A DNA stretch of 64,000 nt from Candidatus Methanosuratincola mesotaenarum (GTDB lineage Archaea; Thermoproteota; Methanomethylicia; Methanomethylicales; Methanomethylicaceae). A program made the translations under genes and the position numbers. How positions within the stretch are numbered: position 1 is the first letter of the stretch; every line of letters begins with the position of its first letter. The stretch spans positions 9,868-73,867 of the forward strand of contig JAULTC010000004.1 of assembly GCA_038801705.1 (NCBI GenBank), written 5' to 3'. The notes under the pieces were generated by a model. It ran no database searches. It saw only the letters and a list, made by a program, of their open reading frames with translations, and was not told the DNA's origin. Positions 7,816 to 64,000 of the stretch are shown here, piece after piece.

Positions 7816-8514
7816 ATGCCGAAAGAAGAGAAGTCAGTCATTGCCAGGCTAGTTATTCGCGGAGAGCACTTTGAGGTGATGGTAGACCCAGATCTCGCTT
7901 GGGCCCTCAAGAGCGGCAAGGAAGTAGACTTCAATGAGCTTCTTGTGAGCGAGATCATCTACAAGGATGCAAGCAAGGGCCTGAAGGCATCGGAGGAGTC
8001 CCTGAAGAAGAACTTCGGTACCGACGACCCGAAGACAATCGCCACCGCAATAATCAGGAAGGGCGAGCTCCAGCTTACTACCGAGCAGAGGCGCGAGATG
8101 ATCGAAAACAAGCGGAAACAGATAGTCAATTTCATATCCCGGAATTGCATTGACCCGAAGAGCGGATTCCCACATCCTCCACAGCGAATAGAGAACGCAA
8201 TGGAAAATGTGAGGGTGAGCATAGATCCGTTCAAGTCTGTGGAGGAACAGGCGCAGGAGGTTATCAAGGCCCTGAGGACAGAGCTCCCTCTCAAGGTATC
8301 GCAGGTCGTGGCTAGGATCAGCATCCCGTCTGCCCATGCTAGGCGAGTCTACAGTGTGATATCGAAGATGGGGAACATGACGCGGTCGGACTGGCTCTCA
8401 GATGGGTCTTGGCGGGGCGAGATGGTGCTCCCGGCGGGTATCCAGCAGAGCTTTGTGGACCGCGTCAACGAACTAACTAGGGGTAATTGTGATATTGATA
8501 TAAAAAAGCTATGA
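7816..8514 (+). CDS. Ribosome maturation factor SBDS/Sdo1
   Basis: [29 protein letters not shown]. Confidence 0.96.
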
Positions 8515-8526
8515 GGTGTTACTTGA

Positions 8527-9213
8527 ATGACTACTTTCTTCGAACCAAGACAGCTAGTGTCCCCGGGCACGCTATTGGCAGAAGGGAACTACCAGCCCGG
8601 ATTCAATGTGTATTGCGATGATGGGAGATATTACGCCTCGATGGTCGGTCTTGCCGATATCAGGAACAACGTGATCTCTGTCATCCCTCTTAGGGGGTGC
8701 TACATACCTCAGCCAGGGGATGTTGTGATCGGCAAGGTGGTTGAGTGCATCTCTACCGCGTGGATGCTCGACATCCGGTCCCCCTACCAAGGGGTTCTGT
8801 TTGCCTCAGAATTCCTGTCAAAGCCCCTGAACCCTCTCAAGGAAGAAGCTCGCAGGTATCTTGACGTCGGAGAGATGGTGATCGCCACGGTAATGGCCTT
8901 TGACAGGACAAGGAACCCATCGCTGACCGCAAGAGACCACGGGCTTGGTAAGATACACCGGGGCACAGTCATAGACATCGACTTCACAAGGGTTCCCAGG
9001 ATAATAGGAAAGAAGGGGTCAATGATAACGATGCTTAAGAAAGAGACTGGCGCCCAGATTCTCGTGGGTCAGAACGGCAGGGTGTGGATATCAGGAAAGT
9101 CCCGCGACGAGGAGGCCGTGATTGCCGATGCTATACGGAAGATCGAGGCTGAGGCACACACTACCGGCCTAACGGATAGAATCAGAGAGTTTTTGATTAG
9201 CAAAATAAGGTGA
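8527..9213 (+). CDS. rrp4: Exosome complex RNA-binding protein Rrp4
   Basis: YIPQPGDVVIG (S1), VPRIIGKKGSMI (KH), GQNGRVWI, AHTTGLTD. Confidence 0.96.
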   Translation: MTTFFEPRQLVSPGTLLAEGNYQPGFNVYCDDGRYYASMVGLADIRNNVISVIPLRGCYIPQPGDVVIGKVVECISTAWMLDIRSPYQGVLFASEFLSKPLNPLKEEARRYLDVGEMVIATVMAFDRTRNPSLTARDHGLGKIHRGTVIDIDFTRVPRIIGKKGSMITMLKKETGAQILVGQNGRVWISGKSRDEEAVIADAIRKIEAEAHTTGLTDRIREFLISKIR

Positions 9214-9217
9214 TATT

Positions 9218-9961
9218 ATGGGCGATTCGAAAAGTGAAAGATTGATATCTGATGACGGAATAAGATGTGACGGCAGAAGATTGGATGAGATAAGGCCAAT
9301 AGAGTTCCAGCTAGGCGTCCTGAAGAACACCGATGGTTCAGCCTATGTTGAGTGGGGGAAGACGAAGATCTTGGTGGGGGTGATGGGTCCGAGGGAATCC
9401 CACCCAAAGCACCTTGCCCTATCCGACAAAGCAAGGGTCGAGGCGTACTACCGGATGGCATCCTTCTCGGTGGAAGAGTGGAAATCTCCAGCCCCATCGA
9501 GGAGGGAAGTTGAGCTCTCCAAAGTCATCCGCGAGGCGCTCGGGCCTGCGATCTTCGTCGACTTCTTCCCAAGGACAAGCATAGATATATTCATCGAAGT
9601 CCTGCAGGCGGACGGGAGCACAAGGTGCGCCTCGATCTCAGCAGCCTCGTTGGCCCTCGTGGATGCGGGCATACCGATGCGCGACCTCGTCGCGAGCATT
9701 GCCGTCGGCAAGGTCGAGGGGAAGCTTGTGCTGGACGTCCAGGACAAGGAGGACAAGACTGGAGAGTCTGATATGCCCATGGCATACATGCCCTCCAAGA
9801 ACGCTGTGACGTTGCTCCAAATGGACGGTCAGATCACGCACGACGAGTTCCTGCAATCAATCGAGCTCCTGAAGAAGGGCTGCATGGAAGTCTACAAGAA
9901 GCAGAAGGAAGCGATTGAAAAACACTTCAAGGGAGCAGTATCAAAAGTGGAGGAGGTATGA
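9218..9961 (+). CDS. rrp41: Exosome complex exonuclease Rrp41
   Basis: RCDGR..DE.RP, DGSAYVEWG.TK, QADGSTR, DMP.A. Confidence 0.97.
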   Translation: MGDSKSERLISDDGIRCDGRRLDEIRPIEFQLGVLKNTDGSAYVEWGKTKILVGVMGPRESHPKHLALSDKARVEAYYRMASFSVEEWKSPAPSRREVELSKVIREALGPAIFVDFFPRTSIDIFIEVLQADGSTRCASISAASLALVDAGIPMRDLVASIAVGKVEGKLVLDVQDKEDKTGESDMPMAYMPSKNAVTLLQMDGQITHDEFLQSIELLKKGCMEVYKKQKEAIEKHFKGAVSKVEEV

Positions 9962-59094: not shown

Positions 59095-59187
59095 GGGCCC
59101 GTAGTCTAGTCTGGTTAGGACACCTGAAAAAGGCCTAAAGTCGCCTTCACACGGCGAAGGTCCCCGGTTCGAGTCCGGGCGGGCCCA
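59095..59187 (+). tRNA. tRNA-Val(CAC) with an 18-nt intron at position 25/26 (59122-59139)
   Basis: GGGCCCG/CGGGCCC acceptor stem, TCGCC-TT-CAC-AC-GGCGA arm; BHB-like TAGG/CCTA helix with ACA and AAG bulges. Confidence 0.92.
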
Positions 59188-59239
59188 TCATCAAAACTTT
59201 TTAGCTGAAGGCAAAAAGTTTTATCAAAAAGGTTCTGGA

Positions 59240-60088
59240 TTGCATCAAACACGAAACGGTTACAGTAATGCTAAGGCGAACTTTACGGTAAATCTGGACG
59301 AATTTTTAGAGTTTTGCAGGGTGGATCTCAGGCTTTCCAAAAAAACAATAGTCAGGAACCGATCCGTTGTAAGGCGTGTGCTCCAGGAGTGCGGGCCGGA
59401 CCCCTCGACCCCTCAGCTTAGGCAATTTCTTGGCAAGATTGAGAATGACAGCACTAGGGACAATTACATCAAGGGCCTAAGGACCTATTTCAGGGATTAC
59501 AAGAACGACTTTGAGAGGGTCAGGACCTTCCGATTGGCCAACCGAATAGTGATCCCTTCCTGGTGCCCTTCAAAAAAGGACCTCCAGGTCTTCTATTCAG
59601 AGCTGGGCGATTCCAAAGAGAGGGCCATATTCCTGATGTATGCGTCATCCGGTAAGAGGCGGAATGAGGTCCTTGAATTGACGCTCAAGGATGTGGACAT
59701 CGCCGACCGTGTGATCTATCCGAACAAGGAAAGCTGCTCAAAGAGAACCTGGTACTCATTCTTTAACCAGGAGTGCCAGGACGTACTATACGAATACCTG
59801 AAGGTTAGGCGAGATCCTTCAAGGTGCGGGAAGCTCTTCCCTTTAGGCAGCCAATACGACCATTGCCTGTTCAAGATTGCGCAAAACAAGACAAATTTGC
59901 CAATAACCCCTAAAGTCCTCCGGCTATGGTTTTGTTGCGAGATGTCCCGGCTGGGCGTTTCTGATAGGTTCATAGATGCCTTTTGCGGCCGTGTCCCTAG
60001 ATCTGTTTTTGCAAGGCACTACACGGACTACTCCCTCGAGACGCTCAAGGAAATATACGACAAAGCTGGGCTGAAGGTGCTCTCGTGA
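59240..60088 (+). CDS. Tyrosine recombinase/integrase (SSV-type C-terminal fragment)
   Basis: SSGKRRNE, KVLRLWF, IDAFCGR, RHYTDY; the frame stays open upstream through the tRNA to 59105. Confidence 0.9.
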   Translation: MHQTRNGYSNAKANFTVNLDEFLEFCRVDLRLSKKTIVRNRSVVRRVLQECGPDPSTPQLRQFLGKIENDSTRDNYIKGLRTYFRDYKNDFERVRTFRLANRIVIPSWCPSKKDLQVFYSELGDSKERAIFLMYASSGKRRNEVLELTLKDVDIADRVIYPNKESCSKRTWYSFFNQECQDVLYEYLKVRRDPSRCGKLFPLGSQYDHCLFKIAQNKTNLPITPKVLRLWFCCEMSRLGVSDRFIDAFCGRVPRSVFARHYTDYSLETLKEIYDKAGLKVLS

Positions 60089-60111
60089 TTTGCCGTCTAA
60101 ACGGGAGGCTC

Positions 60112-60307
60112 GGTCAACCCTGGTCAACCCCCCTCCACGCTTTCCGGCTCCAGTCCCCCTCCCATTACCCCCCTCTTCCATTCTTTCCCCTTCCCTTCTT
60201 CACTTATCCGCATCCGCCTACTGCCCCACCCGGGCCGGGCCAAGCGGCGCGGATAGGCAAACAAACAAGCCGAACAAGGCGAACAAGCAAGGGCAGGGGG
60301 TTGACCA
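60112..60307. repeat. Non-coding region with a 12-bp inverted repeat and 9-bp tandem repeats
   Basis: TGGTCAACCCCC (60121-32) / GGGGGTTGACCA (60296-307); AAACAAGCC-GAACAAGGC-GAACAAGCA (60263-89). Confidence 0.7.
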
Positions 60308-60314
60308 TAAAAAT

Positions 60315-61574
60315 TCAAGTTTTGGCTAGGGGGGCAGCCGCCAAGACGTCCTTCTTCCTGCTGTACGTCAGCCGCTCAGGGGGATTCTGGGCATCCAGCT
60401 CCCTCACAATTTCCACACCCCAAGCCATGTTGAAGAAGTACACCAGCAGCTTAGACCCCTGCGCCCTTGCATATAGCAGCTCAGGCTTAATCTCTTTAAT
60501 CGGCATGGTCACGGTGGCTTTGGCATCCTCGTAAACCTTGCAGGCGATAACGTAGTTGACCCCGTCCTTCCCAGCCAGGATGTCGGGCTCGCTCTCGCCC
60601 CCCAGGGGCGTGACCTCGTACCCCTGGCTCTTCAGCTTGAGGGCTACCATCTGCTCGTACACGCCCCCAAGCCTCCGCTTGGCTTCAGCCTGTGCTGCGT
60701 TCTTAATCAGGCTGATAGTGCTCACAGCTTTCCCCGTCCTGACCGCCAAGTCGCGCAGGGTCACACCAGCGCGGTAAAGCCTGTAAAACTCCGCCCCCTC
60801 CGCCCACTTCGGATCCTGCTTCATCCTTTCGATTATCTCGTCCAGGGCTGCGTTCAAGTCGGTTGAAGTCGTCACCTGGATCGGTGCGGGGGCTGCTTCA
60901 GATTCCCCTTCCGCCCCTGCCCCTGTTTCTTCCCCAGCCTGACGGTAAAGCTCCAAGTCGGGGGCGCATTCCGCAGGCGTGAACCTGTACCAGCCTATTT
61001 CGCCCTCGGGGAGCACAACCAGCGCCCTGCTCAATGCCCAGGGCTCCCTCCTCCTCACGGCTTTAATCCAATCCGCCAACTCCTCCTCGTCCACGCCCAA
61101 CAGCTCAAGGTAGGGCTTATCCAGCAACAGGTTAACCCACTTTATCATTATGATTTCGCATTGCACCCTCAGCTGGAAGTCCACGCCCGTGAGCGTCTGC
61201 GAACCGATAAAAACTAAAATTAGCCCTTCCCGCATCCCCTTTTTTTCCGCGATATGCGCCAACTCAGCCGCGTCCACCGCATCCTGCTTGTTCTTTTTGC
61301 TCTGCGCGTTCCTCGAAAACTGCAGCCTGATCGCATCGTCAACGAAAAAGACATTCACGGGTTTGTCTGGTCTTATCTGCGTAATCACGTCGCGGTAATC
61401 GTTCGTCACGCAAAAAAAGGCTTTACCGCCCCAGACCTGCCTTATCTTAGCTGCGATCGTCTTTACCATCGTAGTTTTTCCCGAGCGCGGCTTGCCCACT
61501 ACATAAATTGTCCTGACCATCACCTCGCCCTTGTTCCACCGCATCAAGTCCTGCAAAAAAGGGGATAAAGCCAT
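60315..61574 (-). CDS. Zot/A32-like (FtsK-HerA superfamily) ATPase fused to HTH and Hjc-like PD-(D/E)xK nuclease domains
   Basis: GKPRSGKTT, FFVDDA, IGSQ...VDFQLR; TLRDLAVRTGKAVSTIS; YEQMV...EPDILA...VIACK. Confidence 0.7.
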   Translation of the reverse strand: MALSPFLQDLMRWNKGEVMVRTIYVVGKPRSGKTTMVKTIAAKIRQVWGGKAFFCVTNDYRDVITQIRPDKPVNVFFVDDAIRLQFSRNAQSKKNKQDAVDAAELAHIAEKKGMREGLILVFIGSQTLTGVDFQLRVQCEIIMIKWVNLLLDKPYLELLGVDEEELADWIKAVRRREPWALSRALVVLPEGEIGWYRFTPAECAPDLELYRQAGEETGAGAEGESEAAPAPIQVTTSTDLNAALDEIIERMKQDPKWAEGAEFYRLYRAGVTLRDLAVRTGKAVSTISLIKNAAQAEAKRRLGGVYEQMVALKLKSQGYEVTPLGGESEPDILAGKDGVNYVIACKVYEDAKATVTMPIKEIKPELLYARAQGSKLLVYFFNMAWGVEIVRELDAQNPPERLTYSRKKDVLAAAPLAKT

Positions 61575-61587
61575 TCGGTATCCCCCC

Positions 61588-61953
61588 TCAATCTTCGCCT
61601 AGCTCCGCGCTGCGCTTCCATTTTTGTTCAAGCATACTCGGTGACCGTATCCCGCAGCTCATCATTAGGTCTATCGTAATTGCGTCTGCCAAGTCCTTCG
61701 ACGCGCTCGTTTTCACGTTGAATAGGTCACGATCCAGGGCTGCATCCAGCAGAAGCCCCGATAATAGCTTGGTCTTGGCTTTTATATCTCGGTCGTTGTC
61801 GCGGCGGATTAAATGCCTGCTTATGATTATGGCGTATTGGTTCCTCTCTGCAATATACTTCAGGTCCTCGTCCTGGCTGCCCTGCTTTATGTCTATCCCG
61901 TCCATCAAAATATCCAAAAGCCTATTTTCCAACTCCTTGGGCATCTCACGCAC
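61588..61953 (-). CDS. Hypothetical protein (element-encoded)
   Basis: 121-aa ORF with GGAGG RBS, coupled to its neighbours. Confidence 0.7.
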   Translation of the reverse strand: MREMPKELENRLLDILMDGIDIKQGSQDEDLKYIAERNQYAIIISRHLIRRDNDRDIKAKTKLLSGLLLDAALDRDLFNVKTSASKDLADAITIDLMMSCGIRSPSMLEQKWKRSAELGED

Positions 61954-62269
61954 CTCCTTCGACTCCTAATCGCTTACACAATTGGTTGACCACCACCATC
62001 CCGACTATCAGCGAAATGGTCATTAGTAGTTTTAGCTGCATCGCTGTTATCTCGTATAGCCTCCAGCTCCCCCAGACCTTCAGCCAAAAGCTCCAAATTA
62101 CAAAATCCCCTCCAGGGGCTATCAAGACCGCAAGCGCAAGCACCAAAGAGCTTATGCTCAGGGCTAACAGGGCGTTGTTCCGCTTGAAGTACACGGCTAA
62201 AAAGGTCGCGGCCGTCAGAAAGAGGGCTGCTAGAGGGTAGTACTCAGGCGCCCCTATCAAGCTCCTCAA
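61946..62269 (-). CDS. Small multi-pass membrane protein
   Basis: About 3 hydrophobic helices; GGAGG RBS. Confidence 0.7.
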   Translation of the reverse strand: MRSLIGAPEYYPLAALFLTAATFLAVYFKRNNALLALSISSLVLALAVLIAPGGDFVIWSFWLKVWGSWRLYEITAMQLKLLMTISLIVGMVVVNQLCKRLGVEGGA

Positions 62270-62423
62270 TCCTCCGTTGGTTTATGTAGTCTGCGGGAAT
62301 TAGCTTCCCTGAGGCACTCGTGAAGTACGCCTGATCCGCCTCCTTCAGCAGCCTGCGGTATCTTCTAGCCAAGTCCTCAGCCTTGCCCTTCAAGACGATT
62401 GTTAGGGTCACGCGCTTGCTCAC
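62244..62423 (-). CDS. Small basic hypothetical protein (59 aa)
   Basis: MSKRVTLTIVLKGKAEDLARRYRRLLKEAD...; GTG overlaps the upstream TGA; not in the ORF track. Confidence 0.55.
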   Translation of the reverse strand: MSKRVTLTIVLKGKAEDLARRYRRLLKEADQAYFTSASGKLIPADYINQRRIEELDRGA

Positions 62424-63283
62424 GGCTTCACGCTCCCGTTAACCAAAGTCGAATTGGCAATCGCATCAGGGGGCGCCATGCTCACGCCTCCCGACAGAAT
62501 CCAGCCCAGCACCAGCCCCACGACAAACAAGCCAATCAGCAGGGCTGGGGCGGGCAATTTCTCAAGACTCGGCATGAAGGTGTTTCTCAGCCGCAGACCA
62601 AGCTTGAAGGCAGTATCGACTTTATCCGCTACCTGCTGTAGCTCGTCCATCAGCCTTTCATTTGCAGCTTCCAGGGGGCGTATCTTAGCCACAATTGCGC
62701 TCACCACCGCATCCTTCAGTTGCTTATCCTCGGAAGGCTGCAGGGCTAGGTACTCGCGCATCGCTGGGATGAATAGCTTCAGCCCCCCCACGTCCGCCTT
62801 ATGGAGGGCGGCGAAGCTGTTGATCACGCCCATGTACGCGTACCGAGCGTTGAACACGCTCATCAAGACGAAGCTTGTGCCCAGGATGGTCATGAGATAA
62901 GGGTCAACGGGAGGGAGGGCGTCAAAAGCCCAAAAGAGCAGCACATTGTATATAATAAACCATGGAAGCACTGCGCTTATTCCCGCTTCGCGGTAAAGCT
63001 CCGCTGGTCGCTTCGGCGCAAACAAGGCTTCGGCATCGCCCTGGATGGCGTAGGTCTCGCCCGTCCTCCTGTCTGTGACCACGCTGATTTTGCTAAAGGT
63101 TTTTTTGGGTTCGGCTTCCGCTTTTTCCTCTGTTTTGGCTTCATTGTTGCCCTTCTCGTTTACTGTCACGGTAAAGTCTTCCAGCGTGAGCGTTTTGTTG
63201 TTTGCGTCCATGAGCTGTATCACGCGCTTCGGGTAGCCGAAGCCGAAAAGCCGAGCTAGTGACAGCAAAACACGGGGCACCAA
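62420..63283 (-). CDS. Membrane protein with coiled coil (element-encoded)
   Basis: Two central TM helices, coiled coil LEAANERLMDELQQV, C-terminal TM helix. Confidence 0.75.
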   Translation of the reverse strand: MVPRVLLSLARLFGFGYPKRVIQLMDANNKTLTLEDFTVTVNEKGNNEAKTEEKAEAEPKKTFSKISVVTDRRTGETYAIQGDAEALFAPKRPAELYREAGISAVLPWFIIYNVLLFWAFDALPPVDPYLMTILGTSFVLMSVFNARYAYMGVINSFAALHKADVGGLKLFIPAMREYLALQPSEDKQLKDAVVSAIVAKIRPLEAANERLMDELQQVADKVDTAFKLGLRLRNTFMPSLEKLPAPALLIGLFVVGLVLGWILSGGVSMAPPDAIANSTLVNGSVKP

Positions 63284-63324
63284 TCAATCCGCCCCCGTAA
63301 TGTAGGTTAAATATGCATTCAGGC

Positions 63325-63423
63325 TCATTCAAAACGCCTCTTGCACCAATAATATGGGATAAAGCCTATCACGGCTGCCCAACCTAAAGCTAACAAAAAC
63401 AAAAAAATAGGGGATTCTTGCAC
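63325..63423 (-). CDS. Tiny single-TM protein
   Basis: MQESPIFLFLLALGWAAVIGFIPYYWCKRRFE after a GGAGGT RBS. Confidence 0.5.
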   Translation of the reverse strand: MQESPIFLFLLALGWAAVIGFIPYYWCKRRFE

Positions 63424-63431
63424 GAGGTCGC

Positions 63432-64000
63432 TTACCTCCACGCCCTCACCCACTGTTTCCCCATCTCGTTCAGAATCGGCGCAAATACTATCAGGAGCAC
63501 GAAGACCGCGCCGCCGAGGAGGTACCACTTTATGCTCTTGAGCTTCTCAGGCAGAGTCCATGCCGACACCGGCTGCTGCCCCCCTGTTGGTTGACCCGAG
63601 TCGCTCATGTGTATGTAAAACTCCACAGTCATCGGTCGTATTGTTGCGTTGATGGCTTCGCTATAGCCTGTTTCCGACCTCGGATCGTACACCAGGATTT
63701 GGCTCACGTTGAGCACATCGCCGGGCTGGTACGTGAATACTCTGCGCTCGTCCAGGTTGTACACCAGCCCGCTGGCGTTCAGCACGTGGCTCTGGTTTAC
63801 GGTCAGCGTAAGGTTTTGGTACACCTGCAGGTACAGGGTTCCGTTGGTGTACACCGTGCCGTTCCGGCTCATGCTGCCTATTACTTTCACAGCCATGTTG
63901 GCTAAGGTCACATTCGCCGGCTCAACTCTCAGCAGCTGCTGGTAAGACGTGCTGTTGAACAGGTTTCCGAGAGCCTTAAGGTACGCTATGTATATGGCGT
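63432..64000 (-). CDS. C-terminal part of a membrane-anchored, sequon-rich surface (spike-like) protein
   Basis: Frame open to the window end; 9 N-x-S/T sequons in about 190 aa; C-terminal TM WYLLGGAVFVLLIVFAPIL. Confidence 0.75.
   Translation of the reverse strand, partial: AIYIAYLKALGNLFNSTSYQQLLRVEPANVTLANMAVKVIGSMSRNGTVYTNGTLYLQVYQNLTLTVNQSHVLNASGLVYNLDERRVFTYQPGDVLNVSQILVYDPRSETGYSEAINATIRPMTVEFYIHMSDSGQPTGGQQPVSAWTLPEKLKSIKWYLLGGAVFVLLIVFAPILNEMGKQWVRAWR

Follow-up and report, generated by a model that had tools for sequence, protein, structure and literature searches.

What kind of element begins at a tRNA gene near one end of a 64,000-nucleotide (nt) stretch of Candidatus Methanosuratincola mesotaenarum DNA? 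The stretch, called the window here, comprises positions 9,868 to 73,867 of contig JAULTC010000004.1 in assembly GCA_038801705.1 (contig C7 of genome G000; window = C7:9868-73867). A reading made from the sequence alone had seen in its last part a putative enveloped, pleolipovirus-like provirus. C7 extends 6.6 kb past the window end, and the element is followed there in locus L001 (C7:68500-80457; L001 position = window position - 58632). The locus holds a conserved module of membrane proteins and an ATPase within an integrative element that is targeted by a CRISPR spacer and has a relative in a cultured congener. With somewhat better than even confidence, we take it to be the left end of a temperate mobile element of Methanosuratincola, a methyl-reducing Thermoproteota methanogen, and to represent a virus of a new family-level lineage with a membrane-protein particle. 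The element probably works like a pleolipovirus, without demonstrable membership of that family.

Integration at a tRNA-Val gene

The left boundary of the element is defined by three overlapping features:

59095..59187, plus strand: tRNA-Val(CAC) gene with a non-canonical intron, the integration target (Rfam RF00005, 44.8 bits)
59105..60088, plus strand: Int(C), the C-terminal fragment of an SSV-type tyrosine integrase (Pfam PF16795, phrog_5127)
59146..59191, plus strand: left attachment site (attL), whose 46-nt core equals attR at C8:1-46 (blastn-short 46/46, E 7e-20)

The target is accepted as tRNA-Val, as first proposed, because its anticodon loop in the Rfam alignment is UUCACAC, that of Val(CAC), because ARAGORN finds no second Val(CAC) gene in the genome, and because at both ends the gene shares ~89% identity with that for Val(GAC) on C2, another contig of the same genome. 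A 24-nt insertion lies 5' of the anticodon arm; by reading of the sequence, the intron proper follows position 26 and is ~18 nt long, which places it between D-arm and anticodon arm. The ARAGORN call of Pro(AGG), which forces a canonical intron, was rejected in favour of Val(CAC); genes for Pro(TGG) and Pro(GGG) are present in the genome.

The att core is the 3' half of the tRNA and recurs exactly at the first bases of C8, a further contig of this genome, while the remaining non-self matches of the tRNA and its flanks in a whole-genome blastn-short search are 29 nt or shorter. A repeat search within C7 found no copy of the tRNA; the attR copy that the sequence-only reading had called for lies instead on C8. 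Host genes follow att there (an EF-Tu-like GTPase, MTHFR and a MetV partner), and contigs of metagenome run X2 run from att into this flank (runs X1-X4 consist of assembled contigs only; X2 and X4 come from the same study, X3, a hydrocarbon metagenome, from another). The empty site is seen in two complete genomes, where the tRNA-Val flank and the first C8 gene stand 222 nt apart (Methanosuratincola petrocarbonis LWZ-6, an isolate; G030) and 187 nt apart (a congener; G037); in another congener genome, G034, the distance is 1.6 kb. Exact att copies, host genes on C8 and their neighbours in the two complete congener genomes thus establish that all sequence from attL to C8:1 is an insertion, made up of 11.4 kb on C7 and an unassembled piece. 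The full element probably measures ~15 kb, since the complete relative in LWZ-6 measures 14.65 kb.

From 59105 onwards, the Int(C) frame stays open across attL, with its first start codon at 59240 (ORF, open reading frame, 59240-60088, plus strand). It matches PF16795 at 29.3 bits (cut-off 27) and phrog_5127 at 1.6e-21 over profile positions 121-345 of 355, so that an N-terminal part of ~120 profile positions is missing. Its catalytic C-terminus, including the HY motif, aligns with SSV1 D335 (BLASTP E 4e-4). In LWZ-6, a 74-residue Int(N) ORF reads into a 51-nt attR, and att and both integrase halves are intact. An SSV-type integrase with att inside its own gene has recombined with the 3' half of tRNA-Val(CAC), leaving Int(C) at attL and Int(N) at attR. 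The profile matches, the frame open through att and the exact tRNA repeat bear out the tRNA-targeting split integrase of the sequence-only reading. Its call for an N-terminal fragment is answered in part. This genome's own Int(N) is on no contig, and tblastn with the LWZ-6 Int(N) returns only fragments of other elements (C8 11213-11624 and C2 459923-460039); the true Int(N) sits in the assembly gap. In addition to the Int(N) at attR in LWZ-6, one X1 contig joins unknown sequence to the left edge of att, and the last 30 letters of that sequence continue the Int(C) frame without a stop, as would be expected of the Int(N)-att junction.

Traces of similar events occur elsewhere. Several Int(N)-like fragments (MP+xGY+S...) lie at 8213-8614 and 11213-11624 of L002, a locus on C8, and at C2 459923-460039, one of them reading into a tRNA T-arm-like sequence; they are scars of other SSV-type integrations. 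A copy of the same Int(N)-like fragment near the C2 end suggests that C8 may adjoin C2 in the genome. Related integrase genes (67-69% nucleotide identity) adjoin tRNA-Val-like sequence at G034:C1:128569-129505 and G037:C1:766993-767817. Some part of the element is matched in all eight congeneric genomes, by the integrase region in the cases checked, so SSV-type integrative elements appear to be common in Methanosuratincola.

A compact module of membrane-protein and ATPase genes

Beyond the integrase gene, every ORF of the minus-strand array described from the sequence alone is present: a C-anchored surface protein (called the spike below), a tiny transmembrane (TM) protein, a TM/coiled-coil protein, small proteins and a P-loop ATPase. 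The array is tightly packed, with gaps of 13 and 41 nt and otherwise overlaps of 4-97 nt:

60315-61574, minus strand: 419-residue P-loop ATPase, a three-domain protein
61588-61953, minus strand: p121, a 121-residue soluble helical protein conserved in the module
61946-62269, minus strand (8-nt overlap): p107, a 107-residue multi-pass membrane protein with hydrophobic segments
62244-62423, minus strand (26-nt overlap): p59, a 59-residue basic protein
62420-63283, minus strand (4-nt overlap): p287, a 287-residue membrane protein, signal-less, with an internal TM region, a coiled coil and a C-terminal TM
63325-63528, minus strand: p67, a 67-residue single-TM protein (TM at residues 35-54), directly after the spike gene
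63432-64000, minus strand: 3' part of the spike gene, which continues past the window to L001 6590 = C7:75089

p121 has no Pfam or PHROG match. p107 is a candidate internal membrane or structural protein. The start of p67 is uncertain, its longest ORF overlapping the spike gene by 97 nt, and its homologue in LWZ-6 is weak.

Neither a head-tail nor a conjugative module is found, in keeping with the sequence-only reading: among 19 ORFs, no match to terminase large subunit, portal, tail, capsid, Rep or conjugation families was obtained with Pfam and PHROGs at E <= 0.05. The lone row with a packaging label is a weak P-loop match of the ATPase (residues 18-62) to phrog_800, 'terminase small subunit', at E 0.0016. 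The Rep gene that had been proposed as a check on the viral reading is not found among these ORFs.

Relatives and CRISPR targeting

The element in LWZ-6 is complete and syntenic. It occupies a tRNA-Arg(TCT) gene and carries an exact 51-nt repeat at both ends, and 14 of the 19 ORFs have homologues in it, in the same order. Homologues of module proteins also occur at two further related loci, L019 and L020, the latter a metagenome contig. p121 keeps its position in all three (77% identity in LWZ-6, 86% in L019, 39% in L020), p107 is 65%, 82% and 47% identical, respectively, and p59 is conserved in LWZ-6 (71%) and L019 (80%). p287, for which four sequences were aligned, is 70% identical in LWZ-6 and conserved down to 31% in L020. 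The other proteins shared with LWZ-6 are the integrase (55%), the ATPase (76%), a signal-peptide protein named p157 (89%), a nuclease (96%) and the spike, which at 37.5% is far more divergent than its neighbours (65-96%). The region between the winged helix-turn-helix (wHTH) gene and Int(N) differs: LWZ-6 has a DNA (restriction-modification) methylase, a V4R protein and others, and the element described here has a beta-helix protein.

In L020 the order is p157, spike, an extra C-anchored ORF, p287, p107, p121 and ATPase, at 31-47% identity. The extra ORF (L020 2322-3386) encodes 354 residues and combines a TM near the N-terminus with a beta-rich domain, a stalk rich in Pro and an anchor at the C-terminus, an architecture that may denote a second surface protein.

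Within the class, the spike is found in 2 of 62 genomes and always adjoins the ATPase-integrase module; a cellular S-layer protein or adhesin, the identity that would have spoken against a virus, is rejected on these grounds. Word-based searches gave nine ATPase and 13 spike proteins (self counted). A scan with a hidden Markov model (HMM) of the spike alignment reached 162 representative clusters at E <= 1e-3, 43 at <= 1e-10 and nine at <= 1e-30. Ten spike clusters were looked up and two have an organism, a Thermofilaceae metagenome-assembled genome (MAG), in which spike and ATPase homologues share one 4.9-kb contig, and a Bathyarchaeota MAG, in which the spike homologue stands on a 382-kb contig. 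In a DHVE2 MAG, an ATPase homologue lies 4 kb from a tyrosine integrase and tRNA-Lys. A metagenome scan with the spike gave three loci only.

A CRISPR match, sought as a further check on the sequence-only reading, was found in the congeneric strain. LWZ-6 has an array (L034, G030:C1:703000-706500) with at least 38 copies of a 37-nt repeat, far from its provirus. One of 36 parsed spacers matches the present element over 36/36 nt at L001 7733-7768, with a perfect genomic match of 37 nt. The matched stretch is absent from LWZ-6's own element, and no spacer matches that copy or the other related loci. G000 contains no array with the LWZ-6 repeat, even at four mismatches. A short match in G032:C40 (30 nt, 93%) was considered as a CRISPR spacer and rejected, there being no repeats around it.

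A three-domain ATPase

The ATPase comprises an FtsK/HerA-type P-loop NTPase domain (residues 1-204), a sigma-region-4-like helix-turn-helix (HTH; residues 235-307) and a Hjc-like nuclease fold (residues 297-419). Its P-loop fold corresponds to the B204/A32 type and contains the Walker A and B motifs. The best PDB structural matches of the model (predicted local distance difference test, pLDDT, 83) are STIV2 B204 (4KFR) and VirB4, which tie. In BFVD, the leading matches (5e-10 to 2e-7) are an unnamed protein, an 'uncultured archaeal virus' protein and, third, a protein of a Nitrosopumilus spindle-shaped virus (1.8e-7); SSRV1 Hjc and many A32-like packaging ATPases come next. Profile comparison with hhalign gives 64% against the Pleolipoviridae NTPase (P 6.4e-5, 130 columns), where the control between known families gives 40%, and 0.4% against the Thalassapleoviridae NTPase.

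The Hjc-like domain (window 60315-60680) keeps E307, P330-D331 and K346. In all nine members of the ATPase family, A or S replaces the acidic residue two positions before the lysine, a residue which we take to belong to the ExK motif of Hjc. Nuclease activity is uncertain because of this replacement, and the domain may be a non-canonical or inactive nuclease.

A fast-evolving spike and its possible link to VP4

On the full contig, the spike (L001 4800-6590) has 596 residues with an N-terminal hydrophobic region and a C-terminal TM. It contains 16 N-X-S/T sequons, against 7.2 +/- 2.3 in shuffles, of which 1 in 1000 reached 16. Small family alignments were compared by hhalign with those from five pleolipoviruses (HRPV-1, His2, HHPV3, HGPV-1 and Halfgib1) and from four AvPV1-like genomes (AvPV1 and relatives) for 'Thalassapleoviridae'. 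The control, a comparison of one known VP4 family with the other, yields 99.8% (E 1.5e-29, 460 columns). An alignment of 30 spike sequences matches all VP4 at 67.7% (P 4.9e-5), colinearly, ectodomain positions 448-535 aligning with 379-456; it matches Thalassapleoviridae VP4 at 46.9% over 154 columns, and scores below 1% against the controls ORF6 and NTPase and 8.4% against ORF7. A PDB profile search with the spike gave nothing below E 0.8, and ESM Atlas gave no usable match.

The AlphaFold model of the spike has a pLDDT of 69, with residues 60-380 and 440-525 well predicted. Among the PDB matches listed, the multi-domain ones are VP5, the whole ectodomain aligning with HRPV-6 VP5, and nearly all others cover a single beta-sandwich or a helical stalk only. 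VP5 is absent from the best 50 Foldseek matches in PDB, which comprise single beta-sandwich domains (carbohydrate-binding module, GOLD, tail-fibre tips) and long low-TM-score alignments. Against BFVD, the model matches HRPV-11 VP4 at 3.4e-6 (probability 1.0, TM-score ~0.2) and a betafusellovirus end-filament protein at 1.3e-5 (probability 0.85). From profiles and model together, it seems somewhat more probable than not that the spike is a very remote relative of VP4, a kinship that falls short of family membership.

Among viral models, the spike comes closest not to VP4 but to the '3 transmembrane domain protein' of Sulfolobus ellipsoid virus 1 (SEV1), matched at 8.9e-9, also with probability 1.0 and TM-score ~0.2. 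Judging from the model, a related protein for the surface or for fusion may occur in ovaliviruses.

Genes beyond the window and the sampled community

Further upstream in the array, past the window, lie ORFs for a 157-residue protein with a signal peptide and C-anchor (p157) and for proteins of 99, 78 and 58 residues, followed by a 170-residue nuclease (p170; PF12187, 1.1e-6), a Zn-ribbon protein, a 230-residue protein and a ribbon-helix-helix (RHH) protein. A divergent wHTH gene, with PadR, HxlR and F-93-like matches, comes next, and then a beta-helix surface protein that runs off the contig end. The wHTH protein matches PF22194 (F-93 type) at 9.3e-5, below the cut-off. p170 matches SSV1 D244 (tblastn 1.8e-5), the sole match below 0.004 among 11 reference virus genomes.

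One X1 contig (depth 8.5) omits 417 nt at L001 9348-9766, namely the RHH/wHTH intergenic region and the wHTH start, and may represent a deletion variant of the presumed lysogeny switch. The beta-helix gene (NosD-like, C-anchored; L001 9902-11958, C7 78401-80457) is 85-95% identical to a chromosomal paralogue at C2:252170-255427 (match C2:252218-255427). Just upstream of it lies a 46-nt exact inverted copy, and X1 contig depth rises in this region. The gene, in the last 2 kb of C7, is either captured host-gene cargo or the product of a chimeric assembly join. On the host side, a defence island stands ~7 kb past attR (L002 on C8, 6777-10673), with an N6/N4 DNA methylase, a ThaI-type endonuclease and a GmrSD-like pair.

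In one oil-field metagenome run, 98% of the sampled sequence words are present. X2 and X4 contain identical pieces of the element at low depth, and in X3 pieces of the ATPase, p157-p99 and nuclease genes occur in diverged form, spike pieces being absent. Variants of the tRNA at L001 514 and 525 predominate in X1, X2 and X4, which points to a related strain of greater abundance in the sampled community.

Proposed nature of the element and alternatives

From the genes we infer both a viral identity and a particle built of membrane, with no protein capsid. The late operon would supply a small C-anchored beta-sandwich surface protein, the fast-evolving glycosylated C-anchored spike and several integral membrane proteins. 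The last protein of the operon, with its ATPase, HTH and Hjc-like domains, is proposed to recognise viral DNA, resolve replication intermediates and load DNA into a budding or pre-formed particle. The divergent RHH/wHTH gene pair would set the lysogeny switch. As a search of the element's ORFs found neither a Rep nor a polymerase gene, host enzymes would carry out replication.

Several observations weigh against this reading. None of the 19 ORFs has a Pfam or PHROG match to a known capsid or structural family. The assembly lacks the right part of the element, and the last 2 kb of C7 are possibly a chimeric join. Neither a particle nor a circular form is seen in the run data, which consist of contigs; in X1 the depth of the element (24.8-28) does not exceed that of its flank (23-35), and contigs are unable to show copy number or a circle. 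IMG/VR has no relative of ATPase or spike (121 and 40 pattern matches, none confirmed), and tblastn against INPHARED gives nothing for the ATPase and one chance match, at E = 1, for the spike. The link to VP4 is weak in sequence. With 14 spike sequences, hhalign reaches 11.8% against Pleolipoviridae VP4 (P 0.0025), in a colinear C-terminal match, and only the N-terminal TM region of Thalassapleoviridae VP4, over 48 columns; among 160 members of the spike superfamily, none exceeds 9.6 bits with the VP4 HMM, and none is matched at 1e-2 or better when reference-virus ORFs are compared by BLASTP. Finally, no pleolipovirus NTPase occurs among the best 50 BFVD matches of the ATPase.

Part of the gene content would also suit a crenarchaeal-type virus of spindle or other non-pleomorphic shape (fusellovirus-, thaspivirus-, guttavirus- or ovalivirus-like). 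Its shell would consist of small hydrophobic proteins (p107 and p67), the 596-residue protein would serve as terminal fibre or adhesin, and DNA would be packaged by the ATPase. The SSV-type integrase with att inside its gene, the SSV1 D244-like nuclease, the F-93-type wHTH match (below cut-off), RHH and Zn-ribbon genes as in SSV1, and a host in Thermoproteota are all in line with such a virus, as are the third-best BFVD match of the ATPase and the likeness of the spike model to the betafusellovirus end-filament protein and, above all, to the SEV1 membrane protein. This identity is nevertheless unlikely. No VP1/VP3/VP21-like capsid protein is detected, the small hydrophobic ORFs giving no Pfam or PHROG match and no tblastn match to the SSV1 VP1/VP3 region or His1 VP21 at E <= 1, though short hydrophobic proteins of this kind are hard to detect; p107 seems to have about four hydrophobic segments rather than two, which a strict hydropathy window merges into two stretches; the ATPase is not of the DnaA-like B251 type; and the multi-domain PDB matches listed for the spike are to VP5. 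An integrative plasmid or defective remnant that makes no virions, perhaps moved by host vesicles and using its membrane proteins for surface modification or exclusion, would explain why Pfam and PHROGs recognise no capsid, Rep or lysis gene and why the contigs show neither excess depth nor an attP junction. The ATPase fold ties with VirB4, plasmids too are targets of CRISPR spacers, and cargo varies between copies. We nonetheless regard this explanation as quite improbable. The order of the eight-gene membrane/ATPase module is kept down to ~31-47% identity in distant lineages, the spike diverges fast, as is typical of receptor-binding proteins, and LWZ-6 retains its att sites and the two integrase halves intact. 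The ATPase domain is of the minimal 200-residue viral type, with ~300-residue viral ATPases and then A32-like ones as best BFVD matches. At ~15 kb, the element is also, to our knowledge, far too small for the known archaeal conjugation systems.

The opposite view, that the element is a bona fide if extremely divergent pleolipovirus (order Haloruvirales) whose whole VP4-ORF6-ORF7-NTPase block is of common ancestry, has the gene layout on its side: a C-anchored spike, a small TM ORF, a signal-less membrane protein, small TM proteins and an NTPase with HTH follow one another as in His2 ORF29-33 and HRPV-1 genes 4-8. The VP5 structural matches of the spike agree with it, as do the hhalign matches of spike to VP4 and of ATPase to pleolipovirus NTPase, the latter above its known-family control. 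Such direct descent is still distinctly doubtful. The ORF6 and ORF7 families have no similarity to any module protein (hhalign P >= 0.13), where the ORF6 control between known families reaches 65.7%. p287 yields P 0.13 against ORF7, with the same topology as annotated for His2 ORF31, and p107 yields P >= 0.12 against VP3 families, an uninformative comparison, since its positive control (Thalassapleoviridae against Pleolipoviridae VP3) also failed, at 0.4%. The gene order differs, with a signal-peptide and anchor protein before the spike and a four-TM protein after p287; so does the NTPase domain order, the ATPase domain coming first and a Hjc-like domain being added. The near-zero score against the Thalassapleoviridae NTPase and the BFVD result for pleolipovirus NTPases point the same way. 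Of the sequence-only assignment, therefore, the resemblance in the layout of the membrane-protein/ATPase block stands and family membership is not supported. The reading preferred here, a virus of a new family-level lineage with a membrane-protein particle, keeps that resemblance. Its wider form, in which a large, so far unrecognised group of membrane-type proviruses extends across Thermoproteota (Methanomethylicia, Thermofilaceae, Bathyarchaeia) and includes the first virus lineage of Methanosuratincola, is tentative and on present evidence rather doubtful.

Significance

No virus or provirus of Methanosuratincola or Methanomethylicia was found in the literature searched; two surveys of archaeal proviruses name neither in their main text, and their supplements may. 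The species description of LWZ-6 makes no mention of a virus, provirus, prophage, CRISPR, integrase or vesicle. This strain, a thermophilic oil-field methanogen isolate, harbours a complete and apparently intact relative of the element, and direct laboratory testing is feasible because it is available as an isolate. The structural genes match no PHROG and the module is invisible to IMG/VR and INPHARED; similar elements in genomes of Bathyarchaeia and Thermofilaceae are probably being overlooked.

The element also bears on the reach of the VP4 class of archaeal fusogens. If the spike were a diverged fusogen of this class, membrane fusion of the pleolipovirus type would be older than the split of the major archaeal phyla. 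If the proposed packaging mechanism is true, the genome is loaded by a single protein in which packaging ATPase, HTH and Hjc-like domains are fused, an arrangement undescribed for enveloped viruses.

Comparison with known systems

Like Pleolipoviridae and 'Thalassapleoviridae', this is a temperate element of ~15 kb at a tRNA gene, without a capsid gene. Its operon encodes a glycosylated C-anchored spike of ~500-600 residues, a small TM ORF and membrane proteins that are signal-less or multi-pass, and closes with a P-loop NTPase that has an HTH. AvPV1-like genomes also contain RHH, wHTH, Zn-finger and Holliday-junction-resolvase genes, according to the portion of Baquero et al. 2024 (PMC10919331) drawn on here. 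The same portion names Halobacteria, Archaeoglobi, Methanonatronarchaeia and Methanomassiliicoccales as hosts of pleolipoviruses and AvPV1-type viruses, whereas the present host is a Thermoproteota methanogen. Pleolipoviridae are delimited, in the part of PMC10599561 used, by homologues of HRPV-1 ORFs 4, 6, 7 and 8 in order within 4.5 kb; the element has no such cluster of ORF 4-6-7-8 homologues. Its gene order is permuted, with the signal-peptide and anchor protein ahead of the spike and the multi-pass protein behind p287. Its ATPase, unlike the pleolipovirus NTPase, begins with the ATPase domain and is fused to a Hjc-like domain. A further difference is that its integrase is SSV-type.

That integrase, with att inside a gene that splits on integration into a tRNA target, is shared with Fuselloviridae (SSV1, NC_001338). 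SSV1 further resembles the element in its D244-type nuclease, F-93-like wHTH, CopG-type RHH and Zn-ribbon genes and in its size of ~15 kb; the early genes of the element (nuclease, wHTH and integrase) have a fusellovirus-like look. In contrast, the sole ATPase of the element is FtsK/HerA-type and not DnaA-like as B251 is, and the spike, at 596 residues and C-anchored, differs from the 792-residue fusellovirus end-filament protein, to which it has a weak Foldseek match only.

By description, the element may also be likened to Aeropyrum pernix ovoid virus 1 (Guttaviridae) and to pR1SE plasmid-vesicles, likewise small archaeal elements that integrate or are carried in vesicles and that encode membrane proteins together with an ATPase. 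The ATPase itself sets the element apart from its nearest structural counterparts: STIV2 B204, the A32-like proteins and the ATPases of the spindle-shaped virus and of uncultured archaeal viruses are, among the matches listed, without a fused HTH and Hjc-like fold, whereas here both are joined to a packaging-type ATPase in an element that has no jelly-roll capsid gene.

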